From the NCBI GenBank assembly GCA_965116925.1, contig OZ220744.1, positions 1,952,001 through 2,016,000 of the forward strand: a DNA stretch of 64,000 nucleotides. Direction: 5' to 3'. Numbering within the stretch: the stretch's first letter is position 1; each line of letters begins with the position of its first letter. Made by a program: the position numbers and the translations under genes. Shown here in pieces: positions 32,268 to 38,625 of the stretch. The notes below the pieces were generated by a model. The model saw only the letters and a list, made by a program, of their open reading frames with translations. It searched no databases and was not told the origin of the DNA. This DNA comes from Candidatus Poribacteria bacterium. GTDB taxonomy: Bacteria; Poribacteria; WGA-4E; PCPOR2b.

Positions 32268-33119
32268 TTAATGCGCTTGCCAAGATGTCCGCTTTAGGGG
32301 ATCATGCACGCTAATTGTCAGCGAAGGACCAAACCCCTCAATCTCCAGACGCAGATTATCACCATCTTGGATCGGTGCCAAGGCATAGTGATGGGTTCCT
32401 GTGTTTACGACATTGCCGGGTTCAAGCGTTATAACCTTGGTAACCTCTTCTAACACCTCTGGTATAAAACGCGCCATAGAGTCAGAGGAGAAGTCGTGCC
32501 GAAGATCGTCATTAACCCAGAGCTTAATGCCGAGGTCGTTTGGATCGGAGACCTCGTCTGCAGTGACAAGTGCCGGTCCCATCGGAGCGAAGGTATGCCA
32601 GCTTTTTCCGAGGAAGAAACCGCCGGGAAGACCACGGGCAGACACATCGATAAACTGCGTATAACCGAAAACATGATCCATCGCTTCAGCTTGGGAGAGG
32701 TGGCTCGCTGTTTTACCGATGACTACACCGAGTTCAGGCTCGAAGTGGAAAACAGTCGCATTTGTGTCGGGGAGTTGAACCGTATCGCCCTTTCCGACGA
32801 TGCCTGTCGGAGATTTGAGAAAGGCGTTAAAGTCCCCTCGCTCGGGGGCAGCAGGTTCTATATAATTGCCGGCAAGACAGACCAATTGATTCGGTCTAGG
32901 CAGCGGAGCTCTGAGACGAACACTATCGAGCCCTGTCCCGGCATTTCCTTCGGCAGCCTGCGCGATCTGGGGTTGTAGGTTGTCCCAATCTTTGATAAGT
33001 GTTTCGATAAGCTCTTGGGGACTGTGATAGGAAATACCTTCCAATGCCGAAGCGACATCAACGATCTGATCGCCGTCAATTACGCCCAGTTGAAAATCAT
33101 TGAAAAATGCAAGTTTCAT
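32268..33119 (-). CDS. Fumarylacetoacetate hydrolase family protein
   Basis: CLAGNY, FLKSP, HFEPELGVVIG, DVSAR, GKSWHTFAPMGP. Confidence 0.9.
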   Translation of the reverse strand: MKLAFFNDFQLGVIDGDQIVDVASALEGISYHSPQELIETLIKDWDNLQPQIAQAAEGNAGTGLDSVRLRAPLPRPNQLVCLAGNYIEPAAPERGDFNAFLKSPTGIVGKGDTVQLPDTNATVFHFEPELGVVIGKTASHLSQAEAMDHVFGYTQFIDVSARGLPGGFFLGKSWHTFAPMGPALVTADEVSDPNDLGIKLWVNDDLRHDFSSDSMARFIPEVLEEVTKVITLEPGNVVNTGTHHYALAPIQDGDNLRLEIEGFGPSLTISVHDPLKRTSWQAH

Positions 33120-33201
33120 CGAAATCTTCGCTGTGGAACCCCCGTCCCCGATAAATCGGGACTAAAAAGCTTTTAAGGCGGGGAGAAAACAGCGCTCCTT
33201 T

Positions 33202-34209
33202 TTAGATATAGTTAAAGTTTAATCGTGTGAGGACTTTGAAACTCTCACGTTTCGCAGACTGAGTGAGACGTTTGCCCTCCAACGAGTATAGAGAATAACC
33301 TTTTTTCTCCATATATCCACTAACACGAGTCAAACCGTATTTTACATGCTTGACCAACGTGTTCTTGGCTATGCCATTGCACATTGTACCCCCGTAGCGT
33401 GGGCGTCTGCCACCCTGCTGTGGGTTCTGTCTGTGCAATTGCCGCCGTGCAATGGGTATCGGACTGATATAAAACACACCAGTATTGTCCACTTGGTCTG
33501 TATCGCTTCCGATGACATGGTATGCCAAACACCATGAATCTACACAATGGGCGTTGAAGTCGTTCGACATCTTGTTGCCAGACTTCTTGAGTCCGAGCGA
33601 ATCACGAATTGCTTTTGTTTCAAAGCCTTTGAGTGTGGACAATATCCAGCGTTTCTGGATTTCAGCGTAGAACCATTGCTTCCCCACCTCAAGGAGGCTA
33701 AAAGACTCGTTCCAGTGACGGGCACCCTTCTGTGTCTGCGCCTTGATATCCTCAACACAGACATGCGTTATCGGAAACATCGTGGACAGGTAGTTGAGGA
33801 TTCGGAGTTTCCAATCCCACCGTGTCCGTGTGCCGGCCGGTATCCGTTGTTTATTCGCCATGCGGTTGGTGCGGTGCTTCCGATTCGGACACTTCCGTGA
33901 CCGTCTACTCCGCCTCAATTGACGACGGGTTTCAACTTTTTGGCTAACCTTATTATGAGCGTCGGTTTGTACATTCAGATATGTCGATTTCTCTGACTTG
34001 ACAGTGAACCCTTCTTTCTTACTACCGGGGTCAATCCCAATCGCTATATCTTGTGTCTGGGTTCCAGAGGGTTCCACATTCAACCGCACGCAGAATACGC
34101 CATTCCGAAAAAACGGTGTGGCTTTACCGGACTTCACCCACTTCCTTGCCCTTGCGGGTGTGGTCGGCATTAGTGGGTTACGCTTTTTGTCAACGACAGG
34201 AACAAACAT
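33202..34209 (-). CDS. isrB: IsrB RNA-guided nickase (PLMP/RRXRR + split RuvC, no HNH)
   Basis: NPLMPTTPARAR (PLMP), RuvC-I GIDPG, Arg-rich bridge helix RRQLRRSRRSRK, RuvC-II VED, RuvC-III HCVD, RRQLH; 335 aa with no HNH/CxxC insert. Confidence 0.88.
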   Translation of the reverse strand: MFVPVVDKKRNPLMPTTPARARKWVKSGKATPFFRNGVFCVRLNVEPSGTQTQDIAIGIDPGSKKEGFTVKSEKSTYLNVQTDAHNKVSQKVETRRQLRRSRRSRKCPNRKHRTNRMANKQRIPAGTRTRWDWKLRILNYLSTMFPITHVCVEDIKAQTQKGARHWNESFSLLEVGKQWFYAEIQKRWILSTLKGFETKAIRDSLGLKKSGNKMSNDFNAHCVDSWCLAYHVIGSDTDQVDNTGVFYISPIPIARRQLHRQNPQQGGRRPRYGGTMCNGIAKNTLVKHVKYGLTRVSGYMEKKGYSLYSLEGKRLTQSAKRESFKVLTRLNFNYI

Positions 34210-34221
34210 TGTAAATCACTC

Positions 34222-34410
34222 CTGCGGGTGTATGTATTACCCCATCGACATCACGGCATCAGAGTGGATTCAGGCTTGGGGAGCACCCGAACCATCAGTT
34301 AGGCTGCCACGCCTTAGACCCGCGATATAATCGTCTAGTCAACGGTTTAACTTGCAAGTGCCCGTTGGCACGGGATTGCAAGCCTCGCCCTTCAGGACGG
34401 GGTTATTGAC
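34222..34410 (-). ncRNA. omegaRNA (HEARO-like) scaffold; guide expected from flank 34411 to ~34430; 3' boundary approximate
   Basis: Minus strand GTCAA...TTGAC closing stem, nested CTTGCAA/TTGCAAG and CCCGT/ACGGG stems, then GGGTGCTCCCCAAGCCTG and GTCGATGGG motifs, directly upstream of isrB. Confidence 0.75.
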
Positions 34411-34463
34411 CTGATATTTTTCCTTTCGATCTTTGATGATAATAGAATTAAAGGTTCAAGGGG

Positions 34464-35246
34464 CTACTGAGCCCGTGCACACCGAAAACCGTAGTTGCCA
34501 TACGTGTTCGAGGGTAAAGCCCAGTTGCGAAGGGCAACGCGCATCAGTCTCGGACCATAGTTCCACGAGCCACCGCGCAACACGCGAGCTGTTGTCGCAC
34601 TTGTAAAAGAATCTGTAATACTGGTTATAGTGCCGCCCGCAATTGGGTTGGCACGGGGGGAACGCACGTAGAAATCCTCTTGATATTCGTCTAAGCACCA
34701 TTCCCACACATTGCCCGCCATGTCATACAGACCGTACCCGTTAGGCGGATACTTACTCACGGGTGTCGTATTACCAACATTTCTCCCGTAGTTCGCCTTA
34801 CCGCTATCAACGCCCCCCTCCCACGGATACACTTCACCCGACAAACCACCCCGCGCCGTATACTCCCACTCTGCCTCCGTTGGCAGTCGCTTCCCTGCCC
34901 ACTGGGCACAAGCCATCGCTGCATACCAACTCACGTACATAACCGGGTGGTTCGCTTTCCCGCTGGGATAGTTATTCCCATTCCAGTGTCTCAAGTACCC
35001 TCCATCGTAGAACCGTCTATCAATACGATCTTTTTGCCACTGCGGGTTGGCATCAACGAACTCCTTATATTGTGCATTGGTCACCTCATATTTGTCCATA
35101 TAGAACCCATCAATATAGACCGTGTGCAGCAACTGTTCATCGTTATCTCCCTCTAGATCGTTGCTCCCCATCTGAAATTCACCGTCGGGGATCAGCACCA
35201 TCCCTTCAGGAGGCAGCTCTTTGGTCTCCGGTAAATTGGCTTTCAC
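34464..35246 (-). CDS. FGE-sulfatase (SUMF1/EgtB-like) domain protein
   Basis: FQMGS, KYEVTNAQY, RLPTEAEWEY, NGYGLYDMAGNVWEW, RGGSW, GFRC. Confidence 0.88.
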   Translation of the reverse strand: MKANLPETKELPPEGMVLIPDGEFQMGSNDLEGDNDEQLLHTVYIDGFYMDKYEVTNAQYKEFVDANPQWQKDRIDRRFYDGGYLRHWNGNNYPSGKANHPVMYVSWYAAMACAQWAGKRLPTEAEWEYTARGGLSGEVYPWEGGVDSGKANYGRNVGNTTPVSKYPPNGYGLYDMAGNVWEWCLDEYQEDFYVRSPRANPIAGGTITSITDSFTSATTARVLRGGSWNYGPRLMRVALRNWALPSNTYGNYGFRCARAQ

Positions 35247-37106: not shown

Positions 37107-37715
37107 ATGAAATGGAAGTTTAGAACTTACCTAATCTGTGTGCTATTTGTCGTGGGTTTCATTGCTTGCGGCGGAGATTCGGAGGATGATGCAGATAAGC
37201 AGCCCGCAAAGCCCGCAACATCGAGCGGTAGCGGTGAAGTTATACAAATTACAGTTGATTTTGCAGCTGAGGAGGAAGCACTGCGAGAAGTTTTCACCCT
37301 ACACGCCGAAGCCATCGGAACGAAGGATCCCGACGAGTTTATGCCGTATTGGTTGAAAAGCGAAAGCGAAGATGTGTTTGTCGCTTGGGATTTTTGGGCA
37401 GGCGCTTTTGAGAAACACCTCGGCTGGCAAGCGATCAAAAAGGGGTGGGAAGGTATTTTTCGCCTGCGCAGCGGCACCATGTCCGTTGAATTTGAAAGCA
37501 TTGCAATCGATAAAATCGCCAAGAACGCCACGTTATACGGCCGCTATCAATGGGCGGTCAGCGGCGGGTTCATCGCATCCATGGTAAAGAAGGACCGCGA
37601 AGACGGGTGGAAAATTCAGCAAGTTGATTACACTAATAAAAAGTTTGGAAACCAAGTTGATGAACTTGAGGATCCTGCGTATGTCAATCCTCCACCCGAA
37701 GATGAACAGGAGTGA
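37107..37715 (+). CDS. Lipoprotein with probable NTF2/SnoaL-like fold, paralog 1
   Basis: Lipobox FIA-C; GWQAIKKGWEGIF; C-terminal DGWKI. Confidence 0.7.
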   Translation: MKWKFRTYLICVLFVVGFIACGGDSEDDADKQPAKPATSSGSGEVIQITVDFAAEEEALREVFTLHAEAIGTKDPDEFMPYWLKSESEDVFVAWDFWAGAFEKHLGWQAIKKGWEGIFRLRSGTMSVEFESIAIDKIAKNATLYGRYQWAVSGGFIASMVKKDREDGWKIQQVDYTNKKFGNQVDELEDPAYVNPPPEDEQE

Positions 37716-38016: not shown

Positions 38017-38625
38017 ATGACACGGAACTTTAGAACTTACTTAACCTGTGCGCTATTTATCGTGGGTTTCATTGCTTGCGGCGGGGATTCTGAAGATGAC
38101 GCAGATAGGCAGCCCACACAGCCGTCCACCCAGCCCTCGACATCGGGCGGTGGTGAAGCGATACAGATTACGGTTGATTATCCAGCTGAAGAAGCCGCAA
38201 TCAGCGAAGTCCTTACCTTGCATGGCGAAGCCATCGAAACGGAAGACTCGAATGCATTTATGGCTCACTGGTTGCGAAGTGAAAGCCAAGATGTCTTTGT
38301 CACTTGGGTCTTTTGGGCAGGAAAGTTGGAGACACACCGCGGTTGGCAAGAGATCAAGAAGGGGTGGGAAGGTATTTTTAATATACGCCGCGGCAAAATG
38401 ACCGTCGAAATTGAAAGGGTCGCAATCAATAAAACCGGGAGAAAAGCGAGTGTGCGCGGCAGCTATCGATGGGCGGTCAACGGTAGGCTAATCGCATTAA
38501 TGGTAAAAGACCGCGAAGAGGGGTGGAAAATTAAACAGATGGATTTCACGGGCGAAAAGTTTGGTAAACAGGTTGAAGAACTCGAAAATCCCGCCTATGT
38601 GAATCCTCCGCCCGAAGATGAATAG
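38017..38625 (+). CDS. Lipoprotein with probable NTF2/SnoaL-like fold, paralog 2
   Basis: Collinear with 37107-37715, including upstream TGCTAACAACATGACCGCAGGA. Confidence 0.7.
   Translation: MTRNFRTYLTCALFIVGFIACGGDSEDDADRQPTQPSTQPSTSGGGEAIQITVDYPAEEAAISEVLTLHGEAIETEDSNAFMAHWLRSESQDVFVTWVFWAGKLETHRGWQEIKKGWEGIFNIRRGKMTVEIERVAINKTGRKASVRGSYRWAVNGRLIALMVKDREEGWKIKQMDFTGEKFGKQVEELENPAYVNPPPEDE

Follow-up and report, generated by a model that had tools for sequence, protein, structure and literature searches.

ISC1-1_MA, an element of Microcystis aeruginosa with an IS605B partner, is non-autonomous, has 5'-GT/CG-3' termini and encodes a RuvC-only IscB1 (equivalent to IsrB); it inserts between N and ATGA without duplication, and its ends are common with those of elements carrying antisense TnpB (Kapitonov et al. 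2016, PMC4810608). The main text of that paper, in which the strings 'start codon', 'Shine', 'ribosom' and 'translation' are absent, draws no link to start codons or Shine-Dalgarno (SD) sequences. The IsrB of Desulfovirgula thermocuniculi (DtIsrB, 8DMB) reads the G and A of its transposon-adjacent motif (TAM) with R323 and Q326 and cleaves targets that carry TTGA or ATGA (Hirano et al. 2022, PMC9581776). For the IscB of ISGst5 from Geobacillus stearothermophilus the TAM is TTCAT, the nuclease cleaves the donor joint, and the guide derives from sequence beyond the right end and depends on transcription by the host, the elements tending to lie in the same orientation as the gene upstream (Meers et al., bioRxiv 10.1101/2023.03.14.532601). 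The ATGA target of ISC1 (2016) as well as the orientation bias and the need for outside transcription (Meers et al.) were thus known before; statements on these systems, here and below, are drawn from parts of the cited sources. Here we describe an ISC1/IsrB-type element located directly before the start codon of a host gene in a 64,000-nt stretch of a Candidatus Poribacteria genome (contig OZ220744.1, positions 1,952,001 to 2,016,000), hereafter called the window. It resembles ISC1-1_MA in cargo, termini, insertion between N and ATGA and the sharing of ends with TnpB elements, and differs in the phylum of its host. A literature search, mostly of open-access papers, found no paper on IsrB in Poribacteria and pointed to none on start-codon insertion or a supplied SD for these elements.

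The element and its insertion site

The element (Table 1) is very probably intact and belongs to the non-autonomous IS200/IS605 elements of the ISC1/IsrB type, an estimate that covers the whole explanation given below, including the insertion and the source of the guide. Its boundaries were set by copies in the same genome and by empty sites in congeners. The genome contains two further full copies (C1:5282412 and C1:3901240), 93–94% identical, and one internally deleted copy, all with unrelated flanks. Comparison of the flanks showed that all four copies diverge directly before GTCAA, and the three full copies all end in GCGAAGATTTCG directly before ATGA. The orthologue of the flanking gene, which encodes a protein of the fumarylacetoacetate-hydrolase (FAH) family, was taken from all 19 same-genus genomes among 40 relatives (89–96% identity). 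All 19 had an uninterrupted site without the element and without duplication, e.g. in L086, where ...GAAAGGAAAAATATCAG is joined directly to ATGAAACTT. These empty sites therefore fix both junctions and make G34411 the last base of the guide. In the deleted copy (C1:5923410-5924017), scaffold position 86 is joined to position 681 of the open reading frame (ORF), and the left end is missing.

The element lies between the SD of the FAH gene and its start codon, the ATG of the adjoining ATGA being the FAH start. The original SD of the gene (duplex of -4.9 kcal/mol) is now in the flank that serves as predicted guide, and this flank is identical to the empty site at 20/20 positions in 7 of the 19 congeners and at at least 16/20 in all of them. 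Using as criterion an upstream SD with a duplex of -4 kcal/mol or better combined with a downstream open frame of at least 80 codons, start-codon placement was found for 10 of the 15 close copies, compared with 7.1% of 5,000 ATGA sites drawn from 55,589; an eleventh close copy precedes a 68-aa ThiS. The other two full copies in the genome also precede long open frames (179 and 171 aa, respectively), that after C1:5282412 presumably encoding an MsrA-like protein, as judged by its N-terminus. In a wider set of elements, Pfam matches were obtained for 36 of the 48 downstream frames of at least 60 aa, several starting from the first residues, and the families include ThiS, RimK, BatA, aconitase and isocitrate/isopropylmalate dehydrogenase.

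ATGA follows the element in 15/15 close copies, with a variable fifth base; a wider tally of 89 ends used patterns presupposing ATG, GTG or ATA, and the unbiased count is that of the 15 close copies only. Examination of 15 other ends in the genome revealed the same ends, followed by ATGA or GTGA, on antisense TnpB elements and on gene-less elements. Since the motif is common to these elements, it is first of all the transposase target TCAT. Read on the opposite strand, TCAT is an ATG start codon followed by A, which explains why copies pile up at gene starts. The element stands 3' of TCAT, a position that on the other strand falls just before the FAH ATG. We suggest that a Y1 transposase acting in trans would have inserted it there, and that host transcription entering from the flank would give an omegaRNA whose first ~20 nt are flank. 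At gene starts, copies would gain a host transcript and spare coding sequence. It is also possible, if somewhat doubtful, that the element end restores downstream translation by way of an SD which the left-end hairpin brings close to the ATG.

IS608 elements have a fourth pair in their guide/cleavage scheme. The window element has a hairpin close to each end, and the DNA guides of the family fit the cleavage motifs (right CAAG/TGAC; left GAAA/TCAT in most close copies), a pairing that follows the IS608 DNA-guide scheme as given in parts of PMC3201880 and PMC5934647. GAAA (with TCAT) is the left guide in 10 of the 15 close copies, and GAAG accompanies GTGA in 5 of 7 ends. Following IS200/IS605 usage, the side with the omegaRNA counts as the right end and the ATGA side as the left end (Meers et al., bioRxiv 10.1101/2023.03.14.532601). 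The hairpin behind the ORF, which the earlier note on this DNA had read as a right-end hairpin, is indeed a hairpin (z -2.47 on the + strand), with covarying pairs, and is to be relabelled as the left end.

About ten TnpB elements (antisense to isrB) and gene-less elements of ~400–430 bp have the ends and target of the isrB element (e.g. C1 3780494-3781916, 4081315-4082732 and 4161431-4161828); one TnpB copy near 350 kb has no far end. The genome of another member of the Poribacteria (G061) gave 88 pattern matches, with dozens of ATGA-type ends. A search of GTDB genomes returned 299 related stretches, from which 79 loci, all titled Poribacteria, were kept.

Table 1. Features of the window element and its surroundings (window coordinates)
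Feature	Position	Strand	Remarks
Host FAH-family gene	32268-33119	-	283 aa, intact; PF01557, 150.5 bits
ATGA	33116-33119	-	transposase target (TCAT on +), predicted IsrB TAM, ATG start of host gene
ISC1/IsrB non-autonomous IS200/IS605 element	33120-34410	-	1,291 bp; termini 5'-GT...CG-3'; no target-site duplication
Left-end hairpin	33129-33194	isrB strand (-)	6-bp outer stem CGCTGT/ACAGCG, internal loop, inner stem, 24-nt insertion
Left-end DNA guide	33136-33139	+	would pair with TCAT; GAAC in window copy
24-nt insertion in left hairpin	33146-33169		carries palindrome CCCGATTTATCGGG
AAAGGAG, candidate replacement SD	33195-33201	-	non-coding; directly after isrB stop, directly before outer stem
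isrB	33202-34209	-	335 aa; PLMP, RuvC-I D60, bridge helix R99, RuvC-II E153, RuvC-III H221/D224, N262, TI-domain R314/Q317; no HNH
omegaRNA scaffold	34210-34410	-	~200 nt; group-A-like topology; Rfam HEARO sub-threshold; covariation
Transposon right end	34379-34410	+	overlaps omegaRNA 5' stem; DNA guide CAAG, imperfect hairpin, terminal cleavage motif TGAC
Predicted 20-nt guide (host flank)	34411-34430	-	holds original SD of FAH gene, AAAGGA, at 34426-34421
FGE-sulfatase-domain gene	34464-35246	-	co-oriented, upstream; PF03781

The left end as a candidate bridged ribosome-binding site

Read towards the host gene, the left end presents AAAGGAG, the hairpin, 9 nt and the ATG; this is the layout of a split ribosome-binding site, with an SD, a conserved stem and a start codon at working distance. 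In phage T4 genes 25 and 38, a stem-loop shortens the SD-AUG spacing from 27 to 11 and from 22 to 5 nt, respectively, as tested experimentally (review PMC3014915). The window copy shares with these sites the distant SD and start codon and the stem-loop between them, 9 nt being left once the hairpin is folded. It differs in that its SD-ATG distance is 75 nt (51 in the usual form), that the arrangement is predicted from sequence, and that the intervening structure is a transposon end.

We analyzed 89 ends, comprising those of 71 of the 79 fetched loci (8 with uncalled or mis-called ends were dropped), 3 isrB copies of this genome and its 15 TnpB or gene-less ends. An SD was present within 9 nt before the stem in 76/89 ends, compared with 1/89 control windows further up. 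The outer stem has 27 different arm pairs in these ends, with a spacer of 7–9 nt to the start in 86 of them; in 47 aligned ends it covaries at 5 of its 6 pairs, and 98.9% of cells pair. In the window copy, outer-stem pair probabilities are 0.54–1.0. As a control, Poribacteria ends of the same architecture targeting TTAT (read as ATAA, which is no start codon) or TCAT were compared, 30 loci each. The pre-stem SD was found in 19 of 24 distinct ATGA ends (3 of the 24 from this genome) and in 5 of 30 ATAA ends, and, when only non-coding ends were counted, in 17/22 and 5/29, respectively; the Fisher p value for ATGA versus ATAA (6e-6) is overstated, the ends being kin. A search based on distant aligned homologues gave a further 151 isrB loci, on metagenome and viral contigs; no end was called in 49 of them, and 90 distinct ends remained. 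The stem was present in 64 of these 90 ends and the SD in 49 of the 64, versus 7 in a control window, although the automatic parsing was noisy and had plainly misread several rows. The pattern does not hold everywhere, since the cyanobacterial plasmid ends L105, L107 and L108, read by eye, lack the pre-stem AGGAG.

It is an even bet that the pre-hairpin AGGAG is not a working SD but arises from coding (the C-terminus of IsrB being encoded there by Tyr-Arg-Ser or Trp-Arg codons), from shared ancestry, from an alternative pairing with the CTCC of the hairpin arm or from a DNA-level role in transposition, the enrichment at start codons then reflecting survival of the least harmful insertions. In line with coding, 50 of the 64 parsed, non-Poribacteria ends from metagenome and viral contigs had the motif region scored inside the isrB frame, often as Trp-Arg codons (TGG AGG), and the SD was found in only 9 of their 14 non-coding ends; against it, the motif is retained after the stop codon in the window family and in the non-coding ATGA-type ends counted above, many of them TnpB or gene-less. 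AGGAG and the CTCC that is conserved in ATGA-type arms are complementary, but the complement of the ends' own loop stands at the SD place in 0/30 ATAA ends, which weakens a general alternative-pairing role. Homology among the ends means that the counts are not independent; yet the stem varies as described while AGGAG stays constant at its foot, and the distant elements L233 and L248 carry the full AAAGGAGGT there. Two further points favour a motif without SD function: the bridged structure is 42 nt (66 in the window copy), compared with T4 SD-AUG spacings of 22 and 27 nt, and 5 of the 15 close copies fall outside the start-codon criterion.

The difference between ATGA-type and ATAA-type ends tentatively suggests a hairpin-bridged SD that keeps the host gene translated, its function being uncertain because an SD-ATG distance of 51–75 nt is far beyond the T4 precedent. 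More broadly, TCAT-targeting IS200/IS605 elements (IsrB, TnpB and gene-less) could have adapted to start codons, with a left end that acts as a transposase hairpin in DNA and as a bridged SD in RNA; we put this forward with more doubt than confidence. A fold of 42–66 nt might then bring the built-in SD within 7–9 nt of the ATG and provide the host gene with a portable ribosome-binding site, so that harm is avoided without splicing and the leader is captured as a source of guide and transcript, which we again regard as somewhat less than probable. A working bridged SD would account for the way in which RNA-guided IS200/IS605 elements can lie in front of housekeeping genes, leave these unsilenced and still gain outside transcription for their guides; structures between SD and start codon would then also reach a larger size than known so far.

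Other arrangements were considered and set aside. The last 18 nt of the element contain no direct SD (-0.5 kcal/mol in 15/15 close copies); some distant elements have one (14/64 parsed ends; e.g. L105 and L106). Reading by eye also ruled out a relay ORF that would end at the TGA of ATGA, the frame having no start codon between the SD and ATGA. A strand test comparing G-U with A-C in the outer stem gave too few cells (6 versus 1), and two pattern-based searches for hairpins in viral contigs (55 and 33 stretches) returned mostly chance matches and were not counted.

The 24 nt inserted into the left hairpin have the look of a REP-like repeat carried along by the transposon end, their palindrome CCCGATTTATCGGG occurring in 77 copies in the genome versus 0.05 expected. 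In the copy at C1:5282412 the internal loop of the left hairpin is now a perfect palindrome, as in L056, L063 and a gene-less element at 5806544. IsrB copies before ATAA or ATAG (L021, L058, L070 and L079) are without the pre-stem AGGAG, and look-alike ends before ATGG (L055 and L073) keep it; the left DNA guides of these ends mostly change to match the target. The IsrBs of the ATAA/ATAG copies may have different TAMs.

OmegaRNA scaffold, guide and target

The earlier note had placed a structured region of ~190 nt upstream of the ORF. Its start, GTCAATAACCCC at 34410, and its structure are borne out, and its length is corrected to 201 nt up to the isrB ATG. Covariation was analyzed in 21 scaffolds, which remained after similar ones had been removed from the 55, out of 79 loci, whose 5' end was called; the structure tested was written partly from the consensus of the same alignment. 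In this set 92.7% of cells pair and two-sided changes occur in 27 of 53 pairs, a level reached in 0/500 shuffles, and slid controls pair at 29–44%. A first pseudoknot, in which the SL2 loop pairs with the next stem-loop, contains one covarying pair (GC in 14 and AU in 7 scaffolds). The arrangement resembles group A of Hirano et al., as described in a figure legend (PMC9581776), whereas the 262-nt DtIsrB scaffold is of group B1 (PMC9581776). As in DtIsrB, the guide is at the 5' end and the SD of isrB (34223-34219) is inside the terminal hairpin of the scaffold (PMC9581776).

The guide had been predicted on the minus strand at 34430-34411 with a final G in brackets, and the flank comparison and empty sites agree with it, that G included. 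Likewise, the proposed ATGA stands where it was said to, directly after the element; its role as the TAM of this IsrB is predicted from the retained R314/Q317, while its role as transposase target is demonstrable. What the earlier note missed is that this motif is the start codon of the host gene and that the guide holds the SD of that gene. Its further suggestion, that the system targets its own empty site, found no substrate in this genome: no second match to the 21-nt guide was found in the genome, the best NTGA-adjacent sites having only an 11-nt seed or 15/20 matches, no joint skipping the element was seen in the contigs of runs X2, X3 and X5, and a close TnpA was not found (see below). 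The native guide and target motif, verified by the empty alleles, make the system ready for a nicking test.

State of the window copy

Contigs of three (X2, X3 and X5) of 24 listed sequencing runs were compared with the locus. In runs X2 and X3, contigs bridge the filled junction between flank and scaffold. Contigs of the RNA run X5 have a depth of 502 on the scaffold bin 34219-34319 and of 33–117 on the ORF; these depths pool copies and strains, so that expression of the window copy itself cannot be read from them. One RNA contig across the junction of element and host gene had 26 nt on one side, under the 31-nt minimum, and was not counted. TnpA genes lie beside the same end architecture in other Poribacteria genomes (L428, L434, L439 and L446).

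The following observations weigh against the explanation proposed above: i) no close TnpA was found in the genome, its 5 Y1 hits being at most 30% identical to the TnpA of the relatives, ii) 0 of these 5 Y1 genes lie beside such ends, iii) the left DNA guide of the window copy is GAAC instead of GAAA, iv) no joint skipping the element, i.e. no empty allele, was found in the contigs of runs X2, X3 and X5, which drop rare alleles and cannot show RNA ends, v) X5 contig depth is zero on the guide flank (34421-34622), vi) the covariance-model match to Rfam HEARO (RF02033), a check proposed in the earlier note, reached 25 bits against a gathering threshold of 83 (E 0.017, model positions 1-211 of 211), and the scaffold is related to HEARO in outline and is not a member by Rfam's curated threshold, vii) as a single sequence the scaffold folds no better than shuffles (z -1.17), viii) a second pseudoknot, between a CCCC loop and a downstream GGGG, is conserved without two-sided change, ix) the scaffold is ~60 nt shorter than that of DtIsrB, and x) the DtIsrB REC-linker residues F119/R124 correspond to T114/N119 and are not kept.

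A reading compatible with the identity of the element proposed above, and to which we give slightly below even chances, is that the transposon is genuine but this copy dormant, its guide untranscribed or unprocessed, without excision by TnpA and with an IsrB that has no target. This would agree with the missing cognate TnpA, with the GAAC guide together with the 24-nt insertion in the left hairpin, with the zero depth on the flank and with the filled junction in X2 and X3, the empty form not being seen. A promoter/terminator scan also gave counts at shuffle level, with no promoter-like site near the flank assignable to the guide. Conversely, the ORF is intact, with a ratio of non-synonymous to synonymous substitution rates (dN/dS) of 0.14–0.21 versus 13 close copies, though a value near 0.15 reflects the lineage rather than this copy. 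Moreover, five close copies with an equally long hairpin lie at unrelated sites (L004, L006, L008, L010 and L011), so the variant has moved, and the limits of the contigs stated above apply to the junctions as well. The window copy is probably stationary in this genome for lack of a cognate TnpA, in contrast to ISGst5, whose cognate TnpA was shown in the part of Meers et al. cited here; ISGst5 also differs in that its IscB has an HNH domain and makes double-strand breaks, whereas IsrB can only nick.

The IsrB protein

The 335-aa ORF contains the features named in the earlier note, i.e. PLMP at residues 12-15, GIDPG (D60), an Arg-rich helix, VED (E153) and HCVD (H221/D224), and the Pfam scan detected no HNH family in it. 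In profile searches, the RRXRR family PF14239 matched residues 3-161 with 127.7 bits (cut-off 25), while the NCBIfam IscB model NF040563 reached 102.6 bits and stayed below its cut-off of 175. DtIsrB (8DMB) was the best PDB match by sequence (E 4e-39). A model predicted from a 70-sequence alignment had a pLDDT of 91.8 (one from a shallow alignment was poor, at 54.4, and was discarded), and its top fold match was again 8DMB (Z 28.4, rmsd 2.8 A, 316 residues aligned, 31% identity), so that identification as IsrB, made earlier from the letters, agrees with both comparisons.

A profile alignment, using 8DMB chain numbering minus 150 and anchored on Pro17/Pro20 of DtIsrB, to which PLMP aligned, placed DtIsrB R104, N265, R323 and Q326 at R99, N262, R314 and Q317, respectively. 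R314 and Q317 are close to the end of this alignment, with R in 60/70 and Q in 34/70 homologues. D60, E153, H221 and D224 are kept in 69, 70, 67 and 69 of 70 diverse homologues, respectively, and are invariant in 22 close ones. The protein thus shares with DtIsrB the order PLMP-RuvC/bridge helix-TI without HNH, the catalytic residues and those contacting the TAM, and differs in size (335 versus about 350 aa), in the REC linker and in having a predicted activity. By PLMP, split RuvC, bridge helix, TI domain and absence of HNH it is assigned as an IsrB, for which guide- and TAM-dependent nicking is predicted. That it is instead a degenerate IscB with recent HNH loss, or an inactive RRXRR remnant, is largely refuted and very improbable: the weak NCBIfam match and the IscB structures next in the fold comparison (Z 18.6–24.6) are set against a colinear alignment to DtIsrB, 316 residues long, that leaves no room for an HNH domain, invariant catalytic residues, purifying selection and a uniform family length. 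The orthologue is compact, as the earlier note had said, and it is not rare, since besides the 299 GTDB stretches 3,486 related proteins were found at E<=1e-10, and the length in the family is uniformly about 335–345 aa; it thus joins thousands of other compact IsrBs, its scaffold being rather short.

Neighbouring genes and other observations

The co-oriented FGE-sulfatase-domain gene is a possible source of read-through transcription into the guide, and no terminator-like site was found on the - strand between it and the element. Within 110 nt before the FAH gene, an FGE-sulfatase-domain gene is visible only in this genome and in G014 (locus L088). Many other congeners have instead a TATAAT-like motif ~100 nt upstream of the FAH gene, and the promoter feeding the FAH site may have changed. 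In L083 (C1:5953607-5956939 of this genome) a Y1-family gene lies between genes that we take, from their motifs, to resemble cas1 and cas4. In the window, two tandem 202-aa paralogues with lipoprotein-like N-termini are located at 37107-37715 and 38017-38625.

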